Shown piece after piece: positions 4,614 to 41,763 of a DNA stretch of 64,000 bases. The DNA is from an uncultured Clostridia bacterium (GTDB taxonomy: Bacteria > Bacillota > Clostridia > TANB77 > CAG-508): the NCBI GenBank assembly GCA_963558185.1, contig CAUWFE010000003.1, forward strand, positions 14,135 through 78,134, given 5' to 3'. The notes beneath the pieces were generated by a model. The model was not told the DNA's origin. It saw only the letters and a list, made by a program, of their open reading frames with translations, and did no database searches. Positions within the stretch are counted from its first letter, which is position 1. The number at the start of each line of letters is the position of its first letter. The translations under genes and the position numbers were made by a program.

Positions 4614-5303
4614 ATGGATATATTCAATAGAACAAAATTATTAATAGGAGAAGAAAATTTAAAAAAGTTACATATGTCAAATATATTAGTTTTTGGGGTA
4701 GGTGGAGTAGGTGGATATGTAATAGAAGCATTAGTAAGAGCAGGTATAGAAAATATAACCATTGTGGACAATGATACTATTTCTGAAACTAATATTAACA
4801 GACAAATCATAGCTACTACTGAAAATGTAGGAAAATATAAAGTAGATGAGATGAAAAATAGAATTTTATCAATAAATCCATATACAAAAGTAAAAGCAAT
4901 TAAAGAATTTTATACAGAAGAAAGCAATATTTTAAATGATACATATGATTATGTAATAGATGCCATAGATACAGTAAGTTCTAAAATTGCTATTATAAAA
5001 AAATGTAAAGAATTACAAATTCCAATAATATCATGTATGGGAACAGGAAATAAATTAAATCCCAAAAATTTTAAAATAGCAGATATTAGTAAAACTAAAG
5101 TATGTCCTCTTGCAAAAGTTATAAGAAAAGAATTAAAAAAATTAGGAATCGAGAAAGTAAAAGTATTATATTCAGAAGAAGAACCTATAAAAACATATGA
5201 AAAAGAAGAAAATAGAAAAGTTCCAGCAAGTATTTCTTTTGTACCTTCTGTAGCAGGCTTAATAATTGCATCAGAAGTAGTAAATGATTTAATTACTATT
5301 TAA
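4614..5303 (+). CDS. tcdA: tRNA threonylcarbamoyladenosine dehydratase (ThiF/MoeB-family, TcdA/YgdL-like)
   Basis: Rossmann motif VFGVGGVGGYVIEALVRAGI, the ThiF-family fold, and typical length. Confidence 0.75.
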   Translation: MDIFNRTKLLIGEENLKKLHMSNILVFGVGGVGGYVIEALVRAGIENITIVDNDTISETNINRQIIATTENVGKYKVDEMKNRILSINPYTKVKAIKEFYTEESNILNDTYDYVIDAIDTVSSKIAIIKKCKELQIPIISCMGTGNKLNPKNFKIADISKTKVCPLAKVIRKELKKLGIEKVKVLYSEEEPIKTYEKEENRKVPASISFVPSVAGLIIASEVVNDLITI

Positions 5304-5325
5304 TAGTTTCAAATCTTTTTACAAG

Positions 5326-5511
5326 AAATGCCTTGGAATATAAGCTTTTCATTACATTCCTTAGGTTTATTACGAAATTTAAGAAATTCTAATTTATTTT
5401 ATGGCACCCTTCCACTAAAAGTGAACTCTTTCCATAAAATGGCATAGAATTTCTAAAATTTCTCCATAAACATTTGTCATTTTATTCAAAGCTTATATTC
5501 CAAGGCATTTC
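5326..5511. repeat. Intergenic palindromic repeat element, copy 1. About 186 bp with 23-24 bp terminal inverted repeats (MITE/ERIC-like).
   Basis: The arms AAATGCCTTGGAATATAAGCTTTT and AAAGCTTATATTCCAAGGCATTTC are inverted repeats. The roughly 140-bp core is near-identical, as a reverse complement, to 36591-36776. Confidence 0.8.
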
Positions 5512-5563
5512 ATGTATTAATTTAAAAACAGCAAAAGATATAATATAAAATTAATTAAATATA

Positions 5564-5592
5564 TTGCAAACTAATGTTTAGAGTGATATAAT
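5564..5592 (+). promoter_or_regulatory. Sigma-A type promoter upstream of ruvA
   Basis: TTGCAA at -35, a 17-nt spacer, then an extended -10 TGaTATAAT. Confidence 0.55.
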
Positions 5593-5618: not shown

Positions 5619-6221
5619 ATGATAGCATATATAAAAGGTATTTTAGAGGTAAAAACAAGTGGATATATAATAATTGATATAGCAGGAATTGGATACAAAG
5701 TGTTTATGTCTGAATCAGCTATACAAAAACTAGGAGAGTTAGGAGAAACTATAAAAATTCATACATATTTAAGAGTAAGAGAAGATGATATGAGCTTATA
5801 TGGATTTAATACAAATGATGAATTAAGAATGTTTGAATTATTACTTTCTGTTAGTGGAATTGGTGCAAAGGTTGCTATAAATATATTATCTAATATTACA
5901 CCATCTAATTTTATCATAGCCATAATAAGTAATGATATAGCAAAAATAAAAAAATTACCGGGAATTGGACCAAAAACAGCACAAAGGCTTGTATTAGAAC
6001 TAAAAGATAAACTTAAAAATGAAACTGTAGAACAACCAGAAATAAAAGAAGAAATTGAAATAATAGAACAATCAAATGAAAATGTAAAAGAAGCTATTTC
6101 AGCATTACAAGTTTTAGGATATACAAAAGCTGAAATAGATAAATCGTTAGAAAATGTAGATAAACAAGAATTATCTGTAGAAGATTTAATTCGTATAGGA
6201 TTAAAAAATTTAGCAAAATAG
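5619..6221 (+). CDS. ruvA: Holliday junction branch-migration protein RuvA
   Basis: MIAYIKGIL...GIGYKV OB-fold domain and helix-hairpin-helix motifs (VSGIGAKVA, LPGIGPKTAQRL). The start is taken at the ATG after AAGGAGAAG rather than at the upstream in-frame ATG at 5601. Confidence 0.9.
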   Translation: MIAYIKGILEVKTSGYIIIDIAGIGYKVFMSESAIQKLGELGETIKIHTYLRVREDDMSLYGFNTNDELRMFELLLSVSGIGAKVAINILSNITPSNFIIAIISNDIAKIKKLPGIGPKTAQRLVLELKDKLKNETVEQPEIKEEIEIIEQSNENVKEAISALQVLGYTKAEIDKSLENVDKQELSVEDLIRIGLKNLAK

Positions 6222-6234
6222 AAAGAGGAATAAA

Positions 6235-7488
6235 ATGGCAGATTTAAGTAAACCTTTAGCATTTCGTATGAGACCTAAAACATTAGATGATTATGTAGGT
6301 CAAGAGCATATAATTGGAAAAGATAAAATACTATATAGAACTATCAAAGCAGATAGATTATCTAGTATTATTTTATGGGGACCACCAGGTTGCGGAAAAA
6401 CATCTTTAGCAAGAGTAATTAGTAATACTACAAAATATAAATTCATTCAAATAAATGCAGTAACAGCAGGAATTGCAGACATAAAAAACGCAGTAGAGCA
6501 AGCAAGTAATTTACTTATGAACCCATCTGGAAAATGTATTTTATTTATAGATGAAATTCATAGATTTAATAAATTGCAACAAGATGCTTTATTGCCATAC
6601 GTAGAAAATGGAACTGTTATATTGATAGGAGCTACTACAGAAAATCCATATTTTGAAGTAAACAAAGCTTTAATTTCAAGGTCAATGGTAGTAAAATTAG
6701 AAGCCTTAACTGAAGAAAATATTTATCAAGTGTTAAAAAAGTCATTAATATCAGAAGAGGGACTTGCAAATTATAACATAAAAATAGAAGATGAAACATT
6801 AAGAAAAATTGCACAAACTGCCAACGGAGATGTAAGAACAGCCTTAAATGGTTTAGAAGTAGCAGTATTAACTACTAAAATGAATGAGGAAGGAGTAATA
6901 GAAATTACTCCTCAAATTGCAAAAGACAGTGTACAAACAAGAAAGGCAATATTTGATAAAAAAGGAGATAGCCATTATGATAATATAAGTGCATTTATAA
7001 AATCAATGAGAGGTAGTGATCCAGATGCTACATTATTTTACTTAGCTAGAGCAATTCAAGGAGGGGAAGACCCTGTATTTATAGCAAGAAGAATAGTAAT
7101 TGCTGCGGCAGAAGATGTAGGTATGGCAAATCCACAAGCTTTAGTAGTTGCAAATTCTGCTATGCAGGCTGTACATATGGTAGGAATGCCAGAAGGAAGA
7201 ATTATACTAGCAGAAGCTGCAGTATATGTGGCAACATCTCCAAAATCTAATGCATCATATATAGGAATAAATGAAGCATTAGAAGATGTAAATTCAAAAG
7301 ATACAGGAGAAATTCCAATGCATATTCGAAATGCCCCAGTAGAAGGCATGGAAGCACATGGATATCATAATGGATATAAATATCCACACGATTATCCAGG
7401 TCATTATGTACAGCAACAATATTTACCAGATAAAATGCTTGGAACTAAATATTATAGACCAGATGAAATGATTAAAAATGATAAATAA
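6235..7488 (+). CDS. rarA: Replication-associated recombination protein A (RarA/MgsA, AAA+ ATPase)
   Basis: N-terminal LAFRMRPKTLDDYVGQEHIIG. Walker A is WGPPGCGKTSLA and Walker B is ILFIDEIHRFNK. The C-terminal MgsA domain includes YHNGYKYPHDY. Confidence 0.85.
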   Translation: MADLSKPLAFRMRPKTLDDYVGQEHIIGKDKILYRTIKADRLSSIILWGPPGCGKTSLARVISNTTKYKFIQINAVTAGIADIKNAVEQASNLLMNPSGKCILFIDEIHRFNKLQQDALLPYVENGTVILIGATTENPYFEVNKALISRSMVVKLEALTEENIYQVLKKSLISEEGLANYNIKIEDETLRKIAQTANGDVRTALNGLEVAVLTTKMNEEGVIEITPQIAKDSVQTRKAIFDKKGDSHYDNISAFIKSMRGSDPDATLFYLARAIQGGEDPVFIARRIVIAAAEDVGMANPQALVVANSAMQAVHMVGMPEGRIILAEAAVYVATSPKSNASYIGINEALEDVNSKDTGEIPMHIRNAPVEGMEAHGYHNGYKYPHDYPGHYVQQQYLPDKMLGTKYYRPDEMIKNDK

Positions 7489-11457: not shown

Positions 11458-12744
11458 TTAATTTTGTGGAACTAATTTTTCTAATCCACCCATATATGGT
11501 CTTAAAACTTCTGGAATAATTACACTTCCATCAGGTTGATAGTTATTTTCCAAAATAGAAATTAACATACGAGGAGGAGCAACAACAGTATTATTTAGTG
11601 TATGTGCATAATAATTTCCGTTTTCTCCTTTAATACGAATTCCTAATCTACGTGCTTGAGCATCAGTAAGATTAGAACAACTACCAACTTCAAAGTATTT
11701 TTGTTGCCTTGGACTCCATGCCTCAACATCACAAGATTTTGCTTTTAAGTCTGCTAAGTCACCAGAACAACATTCTAACGTACGTACAGGAATACCCATA
11801 CTTCTAAAGAATTCTACAGTGTAAGACCACATTTTATCATACCAATTCCATGAATCTTCTGGTTCACATACAACAATCATTTCTTGTTTCTCAAATTGAT
11901 GAATTCTATAAACTCCACGTTCCTCTATTCCATGTGCACCTTTTTCTTTTCTAAAACAAGGAGAATATGATGTCATTGTATATGGCATTTTGTCTTTTTC
12001 AAGAATTTGACCTTTAAATTTGCCTATCATTGAATGTTCACTAGTACCAATTAAATATAAATCTTCTCCTTCTATTTTGTACATCATGGCATCCATTTCA
12101 TCAAAACTCATAACGCCAGAAACAACATCAGAACGAATCATAAAAGGTGGAATACAATAAGTAAATCCTTTATTAATCATAAAATCTCTAGCATACGTAA
12201 TAACAGCAGAGTGTAATCTAGCAACATTACCTAATAAATAATAAAAGCCATTACCAGAAACTCTACGTGCTGAGTCAAAATCTATTCCTCCTAATTTTTC
12301 TAAAATTTCTCCATGAAATGGAATATTATAGTCAGGAACAACAGGCTCACCAAATCTTTCAATTTCTACATTTTGACTATCATCTTTTCCTATAGGTACG
12401 CTTTCATGAATCATATTTGGAATTTTCATCATTCTTTCTTTTACTTGAATTGAATATTCTTCTTCTAATTTTTCATTTTCTTCAAGTTTATTATTAATAT
12501 CTTTAACTTTTTGCTTTATATCTTCTGCTTCTTCTTTTTTACCTTCTTTCATAAGTAATCCAATTTGAGAACTTAAAGAGTTACGTGCAGCACGTAATTC
12601 ATCTCCTTTTAATATTGCTTCTCTGTTTTTCTTATCTAACATAATGACTTCATCAACTAAAGCTAGTTTATGGTCTTGAAATTTTTTCTTAATGTTTTCT
12701 TTAACTAAATCGGGATTTTCCCTTACAAATTTAATATCTAACAT
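11458..12744 (-). CDS. serS: Serine--tRNA ligase
   Basis: N-terminal coiled-coil arm. Class II aaRS motifs are present (FRKEKGAHGIEERGVYRIHQFEKQE, GSCSNLTDAQARRLGIRIK). The start is taken at the ATG (complement of 12742-12744) after AAGGGGAAA, not at the longer in-frame ORF. Confidence 0.9.
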   Translation of the reverse strand: MLDIKFVRENPDLVKENIKKKFQDHKLALVDEVIMLDKKNREAILKGDELRAARNSLSSQIGLLMKEGKKEEAEDIKQKVKDINNKLEENEKLEEEYSIQVKERMMKIPNMIHESVPIGKDDSQNVEIERFGEPVVPDYNIPFHGEILEKLGGIDFDSARRVSGNGFYYLLGNVARLHSAVITYARDFMINKGFTYCIPPFMIRSDVVSGVMSFDEMDAMMYKIEGEDLYLIGTSEHSMIGKFKGQILEKDKMPYTMTSYSPCFRKEKGAHGIEERGVYRIHQFEKQEMIVVCEPEDSWNWYDKMWSYTVEFFRSMGIPVRTLECCSGDLADLKAKSCDVEAWSPRQQKYFEVGSCSNLTDAQARRLGIRIKGENGNYYAHTLNNTVVAPPRMLISILENNYQPDGSVIIPEVLRPYMGGLEKLVPQN

Positions 12745-12745
12745 A

Positions 12746-12990
12746 AAATTTCCCCTTTCTATTTGGCTGCATAAAACAAAAAAGTCCATATGCTATGCAT
12801 AAGGACGAATATATTTCGCGGTGCCACCTTAATTACTTAAAATTAAAAAGTATCTTTCCATGCTGATAACCAAGCATGACTCGGTTTAGTTTTCACTAAA
12901 GGCATAAAAGTAGATTCATCTATATGTATATAACTGTTTTCACCAACCACAGATTCTCTAATATATAAAATTATAGATTACTTATCTTTT
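12746..12990 (-). promoter_or_regulatory. T-box riboswitch leader of serS, with a UCU serine specifier
   Basis: On the minus strand there is an AGAGA element, then a specifier loop GAAUCUAC. The conserved T-box sequence AATTAAGGTGGCACCGCG is the complement of 12815-12832. A terminator GTCCTTATGC-ATA-GCATATGGAC plus T6 lies just upstream of the serS RBS. Confidence 0.75.
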
Positions 12991-13175
12991 ATATAGCAAT
13001 TTAACAATATTAATTTTACCATATTAATAGAAAATATGCAACAAAAATAAAAAATATTTTATTACTAGTAGTTAAAGCTTTCTAGTTAAAATTATTAAAA
13101 AGTATTATCTCCTATCACTATATGACAAACTTCGACATAAAATATAATAAGCCAAAGTTATATAGGAGGATAATT

Positions 13176-14003
13176 GTGAAAAACATAAAAAAGGGAGATA
13201 TAGTAGCAAGAATTTCATATGGAAAAGATATAATTTTTTCAATTGAGAAAATAGTAAGAACAGAAAAACATGAAATTGCAATATTAAAGGGAATAACAAA
13301 AAGAATTGTAGCAGATAGTTATATAGAAGATTTAGTTGTAGTTGATAAAAGAATAGTACAAGAAGCTCAAGAAAAAATAGATAATAAAATAAAACATAAA
13401 TTACAAACAGCAAATTTATCAAAGAATTTTTTTGGCTTAAAAAGAGGAAGTAAAGAATTAATAACAGGAAGTATTTTGCATTTAGATGGAGATAAAAGAT
13501 ATAGCCAAAAATCTATGAGATATTATAAAAGTTTAGGATTAAATGCAAATGTAAAAAACATAGCAGAATATAAACAGCCTAAAATGATATTAGAATTATT
13601 AGAAATTTATAATCCAGACATATTAATAGTTACTGGTCATGATGGAATGATAAGAAAAGGAATTAAATATAACGATATATATAATTATAGAAATTCTAGA
13701 TATTTTATACAAACAGTGAAAAAAGCAAGACAATATAAAAATACAAAAGAATTAGCAATTTTTGCAGGAGCATGCCAAAGTTTTTATGAAGCATTAATAG
13801 AAGCAGGAGCAAATTTTGCATCTTCACCAGGCAGAATAATGATAGACTTTATAGATCCTTTAATTGTAGCAGAAAGAATTGCAACAACAGATAATTATAA
13901 ATATCTAAGAATTGAAGACATAAAAGACGAATTAAGAGATGGAGAAGAAGGTGTTAGTGGAATAGGTAGTATAGGGAAGAAAAAGAGTAATATACAAATG
14001 TAA
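13176..14003 (+). CDS. yabG: Sporulation-specific protease YabG
   Basis: Matches B. subtilis YabG in the N-terminal blocks GDIVARISYGKDIIFSIEKI and IAILKGITKRIVADSYIEDLVVV. GTG start at 13176, 5 nt after AGGAGGA. The in-frame ATG at 13122 lacks an SD. Confidence 0.7.
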   Translation: MKNIKKGDIVARISYGKDIIFSIEKIVRTEKHEIAILKGITKRIVADSYIEDLVVVDKRIVQEAQEKIDNKIKHKLQTANLSKNFFGLKRGSKELITGSILHLDGDKRYSQKSMRYYKSLGLNANVKNIAEYKQPKMILELLEIYNPDILIVTGHDGMIRKGIKYNDIYNYRNSRYFIQTVKKARQYKNTKELAIFAGACQSFYEALIEAGANFASSPGRIMIDFIDPLIVAERIATTDNYKYLRIEDIKDELRDGEEGVSGIGSIGKKKSNIQM

Positions 14004-14098
14004 TTTAAAAGAAATCAAAATGTAATATAAATGTAATAAATAAGCTTAAAAAGCTTTAGTATCAACTAAAAACAATATTCGACATAAGGTTTTACGTT

Positions 14099-14127
14099 TT
14101 GACAAAATGTGCATTTTATGTTATTAT
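14099..14127 (+). promoter_or_regulatory. Consensus-like sigma-A promoter of veg
   Basis: TTGACA, a 17-nt spacer, then TATTAT. The veg promoter is classically very strong in Bacillus. Confidence 0.6.
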
Positions 14128-14156
14128 CTTAGCATATTAATAAAGTAGGTGATATA

Positions 14157-14435
14157 GTGATTTGTAAAAGTGATATAACAAATTTAAAAACTGATATAGG
14201 GGATATGATAGGACAAAAAATCATTGTTAAAGGATCTCTAGGAAGGAGCAAATCATTTGAAAAAGAAGCTACTATAGAGAAAGCATATGAAAATATATTT
14301 GTTGTAAAATATGATGAAAACCAAAGAAATACAACATATAGTTATACTGATGTTTTAACAAAAACAGTAGAATTAGATATTTTTGATGGAAAAGAATATA
14401 ATCCATTAGTTCCAAATATTACAGAATTAAAATAA
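14157..14435 (+). CDS. veg: Veg protein (biofilm formation stimulator)
   Basis: Aligns with B. subtilis Veg: DITNLKTDIGDMIGQKIIVKGSLGRSKS against [26 protein letters not shown], and YSYTDVLTKTVEL against YSYADILTETVEL. The yabG-veg adjacency is also seen in Bacillus. Confidence 0.8.
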   Translation: MICKSDITNLKTDIGDMIGQKIIVKGSLGRSKSFEKEATIEKAYENIFVVKYDENQRNTTYSYTDVLTKTVELDIFDGKEYNPLVPNITELK

Positions 14436-14537
14436 ATGTAAGTTAGCAAAAGCTAGCTTATTTTTTTGCAAAAAATAGTCATTTTTGGTATTGTACATAC
14501 ATATATTAAAATAACAAAATAAAGGAGGTAAATAAAT

Positions 14538-16067
14538 ATGGCTATAGAGCTTGCAAAAGAAACTTTATGCATAGGGCAAATGGTAGGGCAAAAAGTAGAA
14601 AATTGGATTGCAGAAACAGATAGTGTGGTACCAGATATTAAGCCAGATATTTTAAATACTATAAATACAAATGGAACAATATGTGTGTATAAAAAAGAAA
14701 TATTAGATGGAAAAATAAAAATAGAAGGAAGTATACAAGTATATGTAGCTTATTTAGCAGATGATGAACAAAGTAATTTACGAAGTTTACATACAACTGT
14801 AGACTTTTCAAAAGTGATAGAAATGGAAAATGCAAAAGAAGGGATGAATTTAGAAGAAAATTTACGATTAAAAAATATAGAATGCAAAGTATTAAATGGA
14901 AGAAAAGTAAATATAAAAGCTATGATAGAAGCAAATGTATTAGTATCAGCAAATGAAAATATAGAATTTGTAAAAGAAATTAAAGAAGTAAAAGATGTTC
15001 AAATGTTAAATGAAAGTTTAATGATAAATTCTTTATTAGGTAGTGGAGCAACTAAAGTTTATGCAAAAGATACATTTATAATACAAGAAGTAGATGATTT
15101 ATCTGAAATAATGAAGGTAAACATAGCAATTAAAAATAAAGAAACAAAAATAAGCTATAATAAAGTTTTAGCAAAAGCTGATACAGAAGTAAAAATAATG
15201 TATTTAACTACAGATGGAAGAATTAATAAAGTAGAAGGAACTATTCCTATTATGGGATTTATAGACATACAAGATGTAACAGAAGAAAACCTTTGTGAAA
15301 CTAATTATGAGGTTAAAAATTTATTAATTAAACCGAATAATATAGAAGAACATTCTGTATATATTGAAGCAGAGGTTGAACTTAACTGCAATGTGTATGA
15401 AACAAAACAAATAAATGTTATACAAGATTTATATAGTCCAAGTGTAAATTTAAATTATAAACAAAAACAGATAAATTGTTTAGGACAAAAAAAGCTAGCA
15501 AAAGATATATTACATTTAACTGAAAAACAATATATAGAAGAAATAGGAAATCATAAAATACATGATGTAGAAGTAATACCAATTATATCTAATCAAAATA
15601 TTATGAAAGATAAAATATTATATGAAGGAGAATTAGAATTAAAGTGGATATTTGAAGCAGAGAATAGTTGTAAAATGGATACAAAAGTTACAAACATACC
15701 GTTTCAATATCAAATGGACTGTATAGGAGCAAAAGCTAATTCAAAGGTAAATACTCAAATGGAAATAATTATGCAAGATTTTGTAATACTACCAGACCAA
15801 AGTATTCAAAGTAAAATTGATATTCAATTTATTGCAGAAATATCTACAAAACAGTCAATAAGTGTAATAGACAATATATCTATCGAAGAAAGCAAATTAG
15901 AAGAAAAATATAGTTTAGTAATATATTTTGTAAAACCAGGGGATAGCTTATGGAAAATTGCAAAAAAATTTAGAAGTACAGTAGAAGCAATTGCAAAAGT
16001 TAATGATATTGAGAATGAAAATAAAATTAATGTAGGGGAACAATTATTTATTCCTATGGCCATTTAG
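14538..16067 (+). CDS. DUF3794-repeat protein with C-terminal LysM domain (SipL-like spore morphogenetic protein)
   Basis: About 500 aa of repeated beta-rich modules, then the LysM motif YVKPGDSLWKIAKKFRSTVEAIAKVNDI. Clostridial SipL has this architecture. Confidence 0.6.
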   Translation: MAIELAKETLCIGQMVGQKVENWIAETDSVVPDIKPDILNTINTNGTICVYKKEILDGKIKIEGSIQVYVAYLADDEQSNLRSLHTTVDFSKVIEMENAKEGMNLEENLRLKNIECKVLNGRKVNIKAMIEANVLVSANENIEFVKEIKEVKDVQMLNESLMINSLLGSGATKVYAKDTFIIQEVDDLSEIMKVNIAIKNKETKISYNKVLAKADTEVKIMYLTTDGRINKVEGTIPIMGFIDIQDVTEENLCETNYEVKNLLIKPNNIEEHSVYIEAEVELNCNVYETKQINVIQDLYSPSVNLNYKQKQINCLGQKKLAKDILHLTEKQYIEEIGNHKIHDVEVIPIISNQNIMKDKILYEGELELKWIFEAENSCKMDTKVTNIPFQYQMDCIGAKANSKVNTQMEIIMQDFVILPDQSIQSKIDIQFIAEISTKQSISVIDNISIEESKLEEKYSLVIYFVKPGDSLWKIAKKFRSTVEAIAKVNDIENENKINVGEQLFIPMAI

Positions 16068-18595: not shown

Positions 18596-19054
18596 ATGCA
18601 GAAAAATACAATAATTATTGCTATTGCAATAGTTATATCTATTTTAATAGGAATTGGTATAGGAGTTTTTATTCCAAAATTAAAGCAAGCAACACTTCCA
18701 GAATGGAAAAAGAAATATCCATATATAGAAGAATCAGATTATGAAATAAATATAGAAGGAGATAAACAAATATTAGAAGAATTAGCACAAAACGATGACA
18801 AATCTTCCATAACAAGAGAAGTATATCATTATATATATTATGATGATGAAAAAGCACAAGAACAGTTTTTACAAGATTTAAAACAATATCCGTATAATAC
18901 AAATGTTGATACTGAAACAAAATGTGTAGTAGTTATTGTAAATTCAACAACAGAAGAAAAGGTAATAGAAGAACAAATGCTTAATATATTAAATCTATCT
19001 AAAAAGTATAATTTAGAATATGATGGCTGGGAAACAATAATTTGCAATGGTTAA
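18596..19054 (+). CDS. Membrane-anchored hypothetical protein
   Basis: A single N-terminal TM, good RBS (AAGGAG) and no recognised domain. Confidence 0.4.
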   Translation: MQKNTIIIAIAIVISILIGIGIGVFIPKLKQATLPEWKKKYPYIEESDYEINIEGDKQILEELAQNDDKSSITREVYHYIYYDDEKAQEQFLQDLKQYPYNTNVDTETKCVVVIVNSTTEEKVIEEQMLNILNLSKKYNLEYDGWETIICNG

Positions 19055-19250
19055 CAAAAAGTAGTATAATAGAAATATAACTCGTTGTTTTATATTAAAG
19101 GAGGTTTTAATGAAAGAACTATTATTTTATAAAAAATACTTGAAAAAGAGTAAAAAAATATGATGTTCTAGTTATTTAAAACAGCAACCGAGTCTATTAA
19201 TTAAAGACTCAAAAGCAATAAAGTCATAATAGCAAAGAAGGATATATTGT

Positions 19251-19885
19251 ATGATTATTGAACTGCCAAAAAGAATAAATTTGACTAATGCAAAAATACA
19301 AGGAAATTATTTAATACTGTATGAAAAAAATGATTTTGAAAATACCATGTATGAGCTTACATATGTGTTAAGAAAAATCGGTGCATATATTGTGGAAGAA
19401 AATTAGGTAAATATAACAAATCATTAGATCACAGATATCCACGGGTATATGGAGGAATAAGTGTAACAAATAATTTGTTTCCTTGTTGTAGTACTCATAA
19501 TTCTGAGAAGAGTGATATGAATCATGAACAGTATTTAAAGTACAAAAAATTAAGACAGAAGCAAAGAAAAGAGTTGAAAAAGACTTTCTTAGAAATGAAT
19601 GAGAAAATTCTTAAAGAAAAAGGTTTTATCTTACCTAAAAATTGGGTATTTTTTACGAACAGGAGTAAAATTCGGTTTCGAAAATACAAAAATAGCATTA
19701 GAGGAAAAAAATATGCAAAAATTGCAGAATTTTATGGAAAATATAAGAAACTGCCAAGACCTATAATAGTAGATAAAAATTACAATTTTTTAAAAGGATA
19801 TAATGTATTATTGTTTGCATGTGACAATAACATTAATATTGTTCCTGTAGTAATGCTTGAAAATGTGATTTTATTAACAAAGTAA
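19251..19885 (+). pseudogene. HNH endonuclease gene disrupted by a 1-nt deletion in an A-run
   Basis: Frame 0 reads MIIELPKRINL...TYVLRK and ends at 19406. A second frame reads NRCIYCGRKLGKYNKSLDHRYPRVYGGISVTNNLFPCCSTHNSEKSD, which is a canonical HNH signature (CxxC...DH...N...CxxC...N), and continues to 19885. One extra A in the A5 tract at 19372-19376 would fuse the two. Confidence 0.6.
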
Positions 19886-20023: not shown

Positions 20024-21085
20024 ATGAAACTAATAAAAGACCAAGTGCTGTATATAGATAATATAAAGTATGTAGTTGTTAACATGATAGAATTTGAAGA
20101 AGATCAATGGATATGGCAAGAATATGAAATCATAGATGAACACAGAATACACAAATGGTTAACAATAGAAGAAAATGAGTATAATGAAATAGAATATTAT
20201 TTATATACTACATATAGAACTTCATGTAATGGTACTGAAAAGGAATTTTCAGAAGCAGATAAAACCTATAGATTATATGACCAAGGAATTGCAAAAGTAA
20301 GAAACTATTTTGGAAATGCAGATGTAGATATGTTAGAAACTTGTGAATATTACGATTATATGAGCATTACAGATAGAACTATAATTTCAATAGAAAAATG
20401 GATAGATGAAACAGAAAAGACCATAGGTGAAAAAATAGGTAAGCACAGAATAAAAGTGGTTGAACCTGAAGTAAAAGAAATAACTACTGAAGAAATAAAT
20501 GAATTGAGACACCAAATTAATGGAAAACAAAAAGCAAAGAAAATAGCCAATACTATAGCAAGTATAGTTTTAGTATTCATAATATTAATTGGATTAACAC
20601 CTATGTTTCAAAGTTTTTTTCAAAAAAAATCAATGCGAAAATATATAGAAAAAAGTAATAAATATATATATGTAACATCTATTACAAACAATGTAAATAA
20701 AGAAAAAGCAAAGGTATATAAATCATTATTGCCTACTGTTGATTCAACAGTAAAAGATATAATTGATGGAATACCAGATGCAATAAATAAAGTTACAAAT
20801 AGTAATAGCACATCTAAGAGTATTAATAGTGATGTTGGAATACAAACAAGAGATGAATTTGCATATGTATATAAAGAGAATTCAGAAATTTTTGTACAGG
20901 TATCGAAGAAAAAATATGTAAATAACTCTAGTTCAACATATCATTCACATCATAGTCGTAGGTATTATAGTACATATAATAGTAGTGTAACAGATAAAAG
21001 TTATATGGATTATTCAAGTTCAGCTAGGCAAAAAAGTGTAAATAGCAGAACTTCAATGGGTGGAGGAACATCTTCAGGAAAATAA
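20024..21085 (+). CDS. DUF4178-like domain protein with central TM helix and Ser/Tyr/Asn-rich tail
   Basis: Soluble N-terminal domain, one TM (IASIVLVFIILIGL) and a low-complexity C-terminus. It is first in a cluster with two DUF350 proteins, SpeE and SpeH. The DUF4178 assignment is from memory and tentative. Confidence 0.45.
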   Translation: MKLIKDQVLYIDNIKYVVVNMIEFEEDQWIWQEYEIIDEHRIHKWLTIEENEYNEIEYYLYTTYRTSCNGTEKEFSEADKTYRLYDQGIAKVRNYFGNADVDMLETCEYYDYMSITDRTIISIEKWIDETEKTIGEKIGKHRIKVVEPEVKEITTEEINELRHQINGKQKAKKIANTIASIVLVFIILIGLTPMFQSFFQKKSMRKYIEKSNKYIYVTSITNNVNKEKAKVYKSLLPTVDSTVKDIIDGIPDAINKVTNSNSTSKSINSDVGIQTRDEFAYVYKENSEIFVQVSKKKYVNNSSSTYHSHHSRRYYSTYNSSVTDKSYMDYSSSARQKSVNSRTSMGGGTSSGK

Positions 21086-21101
21086 AGGAGGAAAAATAGT
21101 T

Positions 21102-21308
21102 ATGTATATAAATTGGGGAGAAATATTAAATACGATAATATATGCAGGAATAGGAACAGCATTAATGATAGGATGCATGTATGTTTTTGATTTATTAGTT
21201 CCATATGATTTTAATAAGGAATTAAAAGAAAAAAATGTGGCAGCAGGTTTTATAATAGCTGGTATATTTATTGCTATTGGTATAATAGTAAGAACTGTAA
21301 TAAAATAA
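21102..21308 (+). CDS. DUF350 small membrane protein
   Basis: Two TM helices with the DUF350 motif KNVAAGFIIAGIFIAIGII, matching the YjfL family. ATG start 10 nt after AGGAGG. Confidence 0.65.
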   Translation: MYINWGEILNTIIYAGIGTALMIGCMYVFDLLVPYDFNKELKEKNVAAGFIIAGIFIAIGIIVRTVIK

Positions 21309-21323
21309 TGGGGGAGTGAAAAC

Positions 21324-21530
21324 ATGGAAATTTTAGCAAAGATTATTGAAATGTTTATTTATGTAGCAATAGGAATTATGTTTTGCATAATAGGGTATAA
21401 AATTATACAATTAATTTTTAGAAAGAGTTTTAATATAAATGAAGAAATAAACAATTATAATAAAGCAGTTGGAATAATGCTATCAGGGATGTTTATAGGA
21501 ATAGCTATTATTATGAGTGGTGTTTTATAA
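21324..21530 (+). CDS. DUF350 small membrane protein (tandem paralog)
   Basis: Motif NKAVGIMLSGMFIGIAII, paralogous to the preceding ORF. Confidence 0.65.
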   Translation: MEILAKIIEMFIYVAIGIMFCIIGYKIIQLIFRKSFNINEEINNYNKAVGIMLSGMFIGIAIIMSGVL

Positions 21531-36453: not shown

Positions 36454-36590
36454 AATAAATTCCTTCCTTTCTTGTTTATGTAAGGCATCAAAATACCTTA
36501 CTAATATACAAAAATATATTAACATACCATTTATATTTTTGCAATGGAAAATTTTGAAATTAATGTTTAATATTTTTTATAATTTTTGCT

Positions 36591-36776
36591 AAAAAGCTTT
36601 GAAATATAATCTTTAAATGAAATGACGAATGTATATGGAGAAATTTTAGAAATTCTTTGTAATTTTATGGAAAGAGTTCACTTTTAGTGGAAGGGTGCCA
36701 TAAAATAAATTAGAATTTCTTAAATTTCGTAATAAACATTAAGGAATGTAATGAAAAGATTATATTTCAAAGCGTT
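36591..36776. repeat. Intergenic palindromic repeat element, copy 2. It is in inverted orientation relative to copy 1.
   Basis: Arms AAAGCTTTGAAATATAATCTTT and AAAGATTATATTTCAAAGCGTTTT. The core GGAAGGGTGCCATAAAATAAATTAGAATTTCTTAAATTTCGTAATAAAC is the reverse complement of 5360-5410. Confidence 0.8.
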
Positions 36777-36851
36777 TTTTGTATTAATTAGAATAAAAAG
36801 AAAAATAATGCCCTGAAAAAAAGCATTATTTTGAAAAAGATTTATTTAGAA

Positions 36852-41710: not shown

Positions 41711-41763
41711 AAAATGCCTTGAAATATAAGCTTTGAATGAAAAGCTTATATTTCAAGGCATTC
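41711..41763. repeat. Minimal copy of the repeat family: arms only, forming a 22-23 bp perfect hairpin
   Basis: AAATGCCTTGAAATATAAGCTTT-gaatga-AAAGCTTATATTTCAAGGCATT. The same arm sequence as copy 1, but with no 140-bp core. Confidence 0.75.

Follow-up and report, generated by a model that had tools for sequence, protein, structure and literature searches.

A Probable Family of Foldback Miniature Inverted-Repeat Transposable Elements in AT-Rich Uncultured Gut Clostridia

Introduction

The Correia elements of Neisseria (NEMIS/CREE) are non-coding, intergenic transposable elements of the miniature inverted-repeat type (MITEs) of ~100–160 bp that are present in multiple copies, have terminal inverted repeats of ~26 bp, fold as a long hairpin and carry a central site for the integration host factor (IHF). 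The ERIC/IRU sequences of enterobacteria are intergenic imperfect palindromes of ~127 bp whose central inverted repeat is highly conserved and whose size varies through internal insertions or deletions, while the ERIC-type MITEs of Yersinia use TA duplications. The present report deals with a palindromic intergenic repeat found in a 64-kb stretch of contig CAUWFE010000003.1 from an uncultured Clostridia bacterium (the whole stretch is named hereafter “the window”), where it lies next to ruvA, pflB and metG. The repeat probably represents an undescribed family of foldback (long-hairpin) MITEs of AT-rich (~26% GC), uncultured, spore-forming gut Clostridia, whose arms are self-corrected as DNA palindromes. 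The window holds two full members of the short form of this family and one internally deleted stub.

The family shares with the Correia elements its presence as multi-copy intergenic hairpins with terminal inverted repeats, but the two are not similar in sequence. In Correia elements the inverted-repeat ends are conserved and the duplication is TA, whereas the family described here features variable ends, an invariant tip and, in its long form, duplications of 8–10 bp. Its host is a Firmicute without classical IHF, unlike the hosts of Correia elements. Likeness to ERIC/IRU is found in the intergenic imperfect palindrome, the conserved centre and the size variants; sequence and host are unrelated, however, and the present family has no match in Rfam or in BLAST searches of plasmid and phage collections. 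REPINs are REP doublets mobilised by RAYTs, hairpin-forming repeats with frequent two-sided compensatory changes, invariant ends and a variable spacer (PMC3116915). The present elements resemble them as non-autonomous hairpins with compensatory changes and with singlet or stub remnants, but show the opposite conservation gradient (tip 96–100% identical, outer arms 45–63%) and have target duplications, which REPINs do not make. The mirrored arm changes, as well as a flipped 6-nt loop and a flipped 139-bp interior (see below), match what is known of quasipalindrome template switching and of minute inversions in chloroplast DNA, which are processes and not element families. As far as could be found, neither process has been described as what drives the covariation of arms within a family of bacterial MITEs. 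The class of element is an ordinary one, and it is the clean example of palindrome dynamics together with the invariant tip that deserves specialist attention.

The Element and Its Remnant in the Window

Copy 1 is a full short-form element, a 197-bp imperfect palindrome (positions 5320–5516, + strand, core in + orientation) located between a ThiF/TcdA-like gene (4614–5303) and ruvA (5619–6221). Its left arm, GAAATGCCTTGGAATATAAGCTTT (5325–5348, +), and its right arm (5488–5511, +) are 24 bp long and perfectly complementary. Copy 2 (36589–36780), also a full short-form element, has its core on the − strand and is placed between a terminator-like hairpin that follows a helix-turn-helix (HTH) gene and the conserved promoter of pflB. 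The arm on the pflB side, AAAAAGCTTTGAAATATAATCTTT (36591–36614, +), and the arm on the HTH gene side, AAAGATTATATTTCAAAGCGTTTT (36755–36778, +), are complementary over GCTTTGAAATATAATCTTT and have a single mismatch, A vs C, at their outer end. The tip of the hairpin (apex) is the asymmetric sequence TTTTATGG-CACCCTTC-CACTAAAAGTG-AACTCTTT-CCATAAAA, found at 5397–5439 (+) in copy 1 and in identical form at 36663–36705 (−) in copy 2; it is nearly invariant family-wide. Copy 1 and the reverse complement of copy 2 are ~88% identical overall, their 139-bp interiors being near-identical and in opposite orientation. A 42-nt string from the core has exactly two matches in the window, at 5398–5439 (+) and 36663–36704 (−), and none in shuffles. 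The full element is an imperfect palindrome throughout and not at its ends alone, with 85-nt arms that are 79% complementary. Each full copy is predicted to fold as a single long hairpin, with energies of −71.6 and −78.9 kcal/mol for RNA of the two strands and −45.5 kcal/mol for DNA (z-score about −12; 0 of 200 shuffles fold as well).

The third locus (41713–41762, no strand assigned), with the spore photoproduct lyase gene on one side and metG on the other, is an internally deleted remnant without core, made of 22-bp arms (41713–41734 and 41741–41762) around the 6-nt loop GAATGA (41735–41740), and its junction joins both inner arm borders of the full element at an ATT microhomology. The arm consensus has six occurrences in the window, which form three inverted pairs, while 0.09 are expected by chance. 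All three loci are intergenic.

A preliminary description, made from the letters of the window, had listed three copies of the repeat; two of them are full, while the third is limited to the 22-bp arms and their 6-nt loop. The near-identity of the cores in reverse complement is borne out by the 42-nt string and by the interior alignment, and the core's own stem, TTTTATGG/CCATAAAA, is present as described. The arms had been held to be perfectly complementary in each copy, which is correct for the 24 bp of copy 1 and fails in copy 2 at the outermost position; the differences between loci are indeed compensated inside each locus. The reported lack of an internal open reading frame (ORF) was found again, with none of at least 40 amino acids inside the window copies. 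The same holds for the lack of a nearby transposase: the window has 62 ORFs of at least 100 amino acids, family assignment was sought for ~60, and no transposase or recombinase was found among these across the 64 kb.

Distribution of the Family and Evidence for Mobility

A genome scan using as query a 20-mer from the hairpin tip identified 20 further loci in six metagenome-assembled genomes (MAGs) annotated as “uncultured Clostridia”. The search for copies in related genomes, proposed in the preliminary description, shows that the family is not unique to the window loci. It comprises 22 full copies in the window and the six MAGs, all of them intergenic; apart from one orthologous pair, no two of these loci have flanks in common. 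The proteins of the MAGs are 46–76% identical to their window orthologues, which corresponds to a roughly genus-level divergence from the window host. The short form accounts for seven copies of 173–197 bp, including the two of the window. The long form accounts for 14 copies of 450–480 bp in two MAGs and is a longer palindrome with the same centre.

The long form carries the evidence for transposition. Its ends are conserved (TTAAGTTTCGKTTTTTT...AAAAAAMCGAAACTTAA) and direct repeats of 8–12 nt flank seven of the eight complete copies, the target-site duplications being put at 8–10 bp. The two flanks of the same copy match over 9.1 nt on average, significantly more than the 4.8 nt for mismatched flank pairs, of which 3 of 56 reach 8 nt. 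Such direct repeats are, as read from the sequence, the signature of transposition by staggered cuts, and their combination with conserved ends marks the family as a probable MITE. The comparison of pflB loci adds to this evidence. The spacer between the HTH gene and pflB is 398 nt long in the window species, where it includes copy 2, vs 167–183 nt without the element in relatives whose PflB is 90–91% identical. These relatives keep the HTH–pflB gene order, so copy 2 is specific to the window lineage. The original proposal of a MITE/ERIC-like non-autonomous mobile element is thus upheld, for the family as a whole, by at least 22 dispersed copies at non-orthologous sites of at least seven genomes, by the long-form duplications and by the lack of copy 2 in relatives. 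For copy 1, the RuvA relatives found in metagenomes (best at most 67% identical, with another upstream gene) gave no empty site.

The boundaries of the family were also probed. A nhmmer family profile run over ~730 kb of loci detected neither diverged members nor members whose apex differs. Outside Clostridia MAGs, similar sequences were seen neither in the genome scan nor with BLAST of the short and long forms against plasmid and phage collections, and the apex has no match in the viral_contigs collection. The end motif of the long form has 17 single matches there which lack further homology and were attributed to chance. The ORFs around the 14 long-form copies include no multi-copy protein. 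The end sequences that would mark a matching insertion sequence (IS) are TTAAGTTTCGG... or AAATGCCTTGRAATATAAGC.

Some loci of related species are worth recording. A half element, composed of the left arm and the inner arm and stopping short of the apex, adjoins a gene at L029:23-103 in a species whose RuvA is only 58% identical to that of the window host; remnants of the family extend therefore past the six MAGs identified by the apex scan. A different palindromic element of ~250–290 bp, whose arms include AGTCAAAACTATAAATTATAAAATTCTTGTACTTATATATTAAA and its complement, is found in a related species between a membrane-protein gene and ruvA (L027:1205-1450), while the spacer orthologous to this site has only ~10 nt at L093:1491-1501. 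From this pair of loci the clade seems to hold several unrelated families of foldback MITEs. The pflB–pflA spacer of relatives has also gained DNA, namely an ORF6N-domain gene on the opposite strand (L128:4235-5640) and a 65-amino-acid ORF (L127:4235-4646). In L128 two tandem HTH genes are found upstream of pflB.

Arm Covariation

Short and long forms were aligned separately; a joint RNAalifold run misaligned the outer arms. Standard pairs make up 98.2% of the cells of the long-form alignment. Changes on both sides are found at 22 pairs and 57 cells, vs 17.6 cells in shuffles, and 0 of 500 shuffles reach the observed value. This signal is lost when the partners are slid by 1–3 columns. The two-sided changes of the long form are concentrated in the outer stem, which evolves fast and has them at 18 of its 39 pairs. 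They are found in 13 of 56 pairs of the short form, again mostly in the outer stem. The compensatory arm changes noted in the preliminary description are therefore real and highly significant, but the selection on structure that had been deduced from them is probably wrong, arm copying at the level of DNA giving a better fit.

Three results bear on this distinction. Over the whole structure G:T is found in 14 columns and A:C in 11, and the cells of the outer stem comprise 452 Watson–Crick pairs, 3 G:T and 5 A:C. In an RNA made from one strand, G:U would be expected to be tolerated but A:C would not, so these even counts speak against RNA. The orientation of the elements relative to the neighbouring genes is random as well (seven one way and five the other way, with four divergent contexts and one convergent), and the segment between the arms has been flipped at two loci (see next section). 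On these three grounds, the covariation probably reflects copying from arm to arm in DNA by template switching better than it does selection on RNA. From perfect “compensatory” covariation of an intergenic repeat it does not follow that the repeat is a structured RNA.

Inversions, Deletions and Strain Variation

One locus is represented in two MAGs, as L007 and L025. Their flanks are 97–98.6% identical and their 18-bp arms are identical, while the 139-bp interior is exactly reverse-complemented. The second flip is found in the remnant of the window species, whose loop reads GAATGA in the window, L100, L101 and L133, and TCATTC, the exact reverse complement, in L102/L134 (short-read assembly) and L103/L135 (long-read assembly). 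By its features this is an event of the “minute inversion” type known from hairpins of chloroplast spacers. Internal deletions are not restricted to the remnant: L016:4720-4800 is an ends-only derivative of the long form, and 162 bp of copy 2 are missing from L106/L135, possibly as an artefact of assembly (see below).

These observations can be assembled in a tentative scheme. The elements carry no gene and would be spread in trans by a transposase encoded elsewhere, as the 8–10-bp target duplications of the long-form relatives suggest. During replication the nascent strand would fold back and copy one arm from the other by quasipalindrome template switching, so that a change in one arm would either be erased or be mirrored in its partner. 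“Compensatory” differences would thus accumulate without selection on RNA. The segment between the arms would occasionally be inverted, presumably via the hairpin, as for the 139-bp interior and the 6-nt loop, and slippage across the hairpin base would remove the interior and leave an arms-only stub. Processes of these kinds are known from reporter genes of Escherichia coli and from chloroplast spacers. Template switching, in which the nascent strand is its own template, perfects imperfect inverted repeats or quasipalindromes in E. coli (PMC7202029), and small hairpin-facilitated inversions with loops of 4–50 bp are pervasive in non-coding chloroplast DNA (PMC12371153). We infer that template switching is the best-supported cause of the mirrored arm changes; an instability of the same hairpin-driven kind is compatible with the flips and deletions. 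The family would be a natural bacterial case in which arm copying, loop flips and interior deletions are all visible.

Strains of the window species also differ in the arms. The outer left edge of copy 1 (window 5321–5329) exists in two variants, TACAAGAAATGCC and TATTAGAAA-GCC, as seen when the window is compared with L003, L004, L130 and L131; in these loci the change at the outer edge of the left arm is uncompensated, the right arm being unchanged. The pflB-side arm of copy 2 has an uncompensated A>G in L134. Such fresh one-sided changes make visible the raw material for later mirroring. The orientation of the two copies is constant among assemblies that come from different samples: site and orientation of copy 1 are unchanged in all 10 species assemblies covering its left junction, and the assemblies that contain copy 2 in full (window, L104, L105 and L134) agree in its orientation. 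A fast programmed switch is unlikely on this basis.

Note that in different samples the MEGAHIT k119 contigs break off within copy 1 (L005:1, L006:1 and L125:2066, corresponding to window positions 5337, 5361 and 5479) and that the contigs on its left and right sides overlap by exactly 119 nt. This points to a branch of the assembly graph at copy 1, for which the strain variants of the left arm, a mixed orientation and the palindrome itself are possible causes. The breaks in several samples make the family of relevance for the quality of metagenome assemblies.

Alternative Explanations

A number of observations weigh against the reading of the family as MITEs with self-corrected arms. The flanks of the short form, including the window copies and their short-form relatives, have no detectable target-site duplication (6.4 nt vs a background of 6.2 nt), so the short form itself is only presumed to transpose; the check for insertion-site duplications that had been proposed at the outset gives direct repeats at seven of eight complete long-form copies and a background level for the short form. 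No nucleotide-exact empty site was recovered for copy 2, the intergenic DNA of the relatives being too diverged. Neither the window nor the ~730 kb of loci, with the ORFs around the 14 long-form copies, nor the plasmid, phage and viral collections yielded a cognate transposase or a full-length IS. The 162-bp deletion in copy 2 of L106/L135 may be an artefact: the long-read assembly is rich in frameshifts, and L134, a short-read assembly with the same remnant-loop variant as L135, keeps copy 2 in full. Conservation climbs toward the tip of the hairpin, the reverse of what is typical for MITEs and REPINs, and the template-switching model leaves this gradient unexplained. Finally, compensated arms could equally result if selection favoured a single-stranded intermediate with a stable hairpin, which has been proposed for REPINs (PMC3116915).

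One rival explanation is a programmed invertible switch. Invertons, the invertible promoters of gut bacteria, are segments of 100–400 bp between inverted repeats of 10–30 bp that are found in both orientations. If the arms were invertase sites, flipping of the interior would toggle a promoter or another signal for the neighbouring gene. The interior flanked by inverted repeats is found in both orientations at the orthologous locus L007/L025, the remnant loop is flipped between strains, copies are upstream of genes, with divergent contexts exceeding convergent ones (4 vs 1), the apex holds a promoter-like TTCACT-18-TAAAAT and MEGAHIT contigs break within copy 1 in several samples. The uniform orientation of copy 1 and of every full copy 2 among species assemblies is difficult to reconcile with such a switch. 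The promoter-like site is not convincing, as it has just 9/12 consensus positions and is aimed away from ruvA and pflB, both of which have their own promoter-like sites downstream of the element. No invertase or other recombinase is encoded in the 64 kb, the 6-nt spacer between the 22-bp arms of the remnant is too short for recombinase synapsis, arm sequences vary between copies of this multi-copy element and the long-form relatives carry target-site duplications; an inverton is improbable. A somewhat lower probability is assigned to a structured RNA, be it a small RNA (sRNA), a processing or stabilising hairpin, or a terminator or insulator, whose arms would be kept paired by selection on the RNA fold. 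Its supporting points are the high stability of the predicted RNA hairpins, the strong covariation in both forms and, in the long form, the fixation of three G:U positions on its core(+) strand; in addition, Correia and ERIC hairpins affect the fate of mRNAs. Against an RNA stand the even frequencies of G:T and A:C (14 vs 11 columns) with a fast-evolving outer stem that is almost purely Watson–Crick, the occurrence of either orientation relative to flanking genes (7 vs 5), the flip at the orthologous locus and the about equal folding of the two strands. A search of the whole window in Rfam at the gathering threshold gave no match to the element, and with E-values of up to 10 allowed, the element itself had chance-level matches only. 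Neither a T-tract nor a terminator-like site was found at the element. The sRNA or terminator envisaged in the preliminary description is therefore not sustained, having no Rfam family, no terminator features and no strand bias.

Two further alternatives concern how the hairpin is mobilised or how it was formed. The architecture, a long hairpin of inverted halves, would suit a single-stranded hairpin mobilised by a single-copy HUH/RAYT-type transposase, with arms paired by selection for the intermediate and the sequence-constrained tip as a possible recognition loop. However, the long form is flanked by 8–10-bp target duplications and, to our knowledge, IS200/RAYT-type transposition makes no target duplication. 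Comparison with REPINs is similarly divided: they have the same frequent compensatory changes, and their excision products resemble the arms-only and asymmetric deletion products found here, but their ends are invariant and their spacer is variable whereas here the ends vary and the centre is invariant (PMC3116915). The present elements also have no GTAG-type REP head and no Y1 transposase is encoded in the 64-kb window; a REPIN-like mode of mobilisation is quite as improbable as a structured RNA. A nested origin, in which palindromes already present at each locus, for instance terminators, received a small asymmetric core in their centre, would make the arms part of the target and not of the element. 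The constant core between arms that differ by locus, the arms-only hairpin in the window and the long form, which resembles a short-form-like centre within a larger palindrome, could all be read in this way. The arms of different copies are, however, clearly homologous and have nCTTnnAATATAAnCTTTT in common, they are 22–24 bp long without terminator features, and the arms-only hairpin is recognised as a deletion product by the inner junctions of a full element that it carries, united at a microhomology; this origin is the least probable of those considered. Readings as part of a larger element, namely IS200/IS605 PATEs, integron attC sites, retron msd and IS110 bridge RNA, were rejected: there are target duplications and a symmetric foldback, and there is neither an adjacent gene nor an Rfam match.

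The Hairpin Tip and Promoter-Like Sites

Within the foldback MITE family, identity is 45–63% in the outer arms, 66–89% in the inner arms and 96–100% in the apex flanks, the latter measured outside the 20-mer that was used as query for the genome scan. The tip of 43 nt is asymmetric and stays near-invariant over a genus-level divergence of the hosts, over which the arms fall to ~45–65% identity; this points to a constraint on its sequence. Most likely the tip is needed for mobilisation or is a protein-binding site. A bolder proposal would make it the functional heart of the element, either a module that binds a specific protein or has a regulatory role, or a loop recognised in a mobilisation step that depends on the hairpin, with the MITE spreading the tip and the arms needing only to pair. 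This proposal is doubtful; if true, the family would be a MITE with its determinant at the loop and not at the ends, kept foldable by self-templated correction of its arms. The invariant tip is in any case a concrete and testable candidate protein-binding site. Matches to Spo0A and CodY boxes seen by eye in the inner arms are too degenerate in DNA of 26% GC to count.

The promoter-like TTCACT-18-TAAAAT of the apex, with its 9/12 match to the consensus, is directed away from ruvA and pflB in both copies. A good promoter-like site for ruvA is found at 5564–5592, downstream of copy 1. Upstream of pflB and downstream of copy 2 there is a TTGMAA-17-TAWTAT block that is kept in relatives, as read from the alignment. 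The copies are upstream of native promoters and not within them, and their effects on ruvA, pflB and metG are probably incidental. A 10/12 promoter-like site at 36759–36787 (−) combines a −35 TTAATA of the flank with a TATAAT in the arm of copy 2 and reads through the element toward pflB. With its insertion, copy 2 may have given rise to a hybrid promoter, upstream of the native promoter that is conserved. In the long form, each outer arm has an invariant, inward-facing TGTTATAAT that corresponds to the extended −10 consensus (L023 copies, columns 76–84 of alignment A3, for instance L012:4300-4310), and long-form copies could, judging from this motif, be transcribed convergently from both ends.

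Host and Gene Neighbourhood

The host of the window is an uncultured human-gut Clostridium that turns up in dozens of metagenome assemblies. The window has 26% GC and its genes are housekeeping and sporulation genes, the latter including spoVT, spoIIAA/AB-sigF, spoIID, yabG, sipL, spoVA and spo0A. The repeat family marks a clade of AT-rich uncultured gut Clostridia.

Directly downstream of the HTH gene, at 36800–36835, a hairpin AAATAATGC...GCATTATTT is followed by a T-rich run on the minus strand. It looks like the terminator of this gene, too A+T-rich for the terminator rule that was used. The gene that follows ruvA (6235–7488, +) is not ruvB; it codes for an MgsA/RarA-type AAA+ recombination factor with the Pfam domains RuvB_N, AAA_assoc_2 and MgsA_C. 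Intergenic gaps of 400–570 nt without Rfam match or family repeat are found at 14003–14538, 19054–19475, 21085–21517 and 55661–56228, the last one downstream of spo0A. A T-box leader (Rfam RF00230, 108.6 bits) is present at 12798–13003 (−), directly upstream of the seryl-tRNA synthetase gene (11458–12789, −), an ordinary arrangement that is already known.

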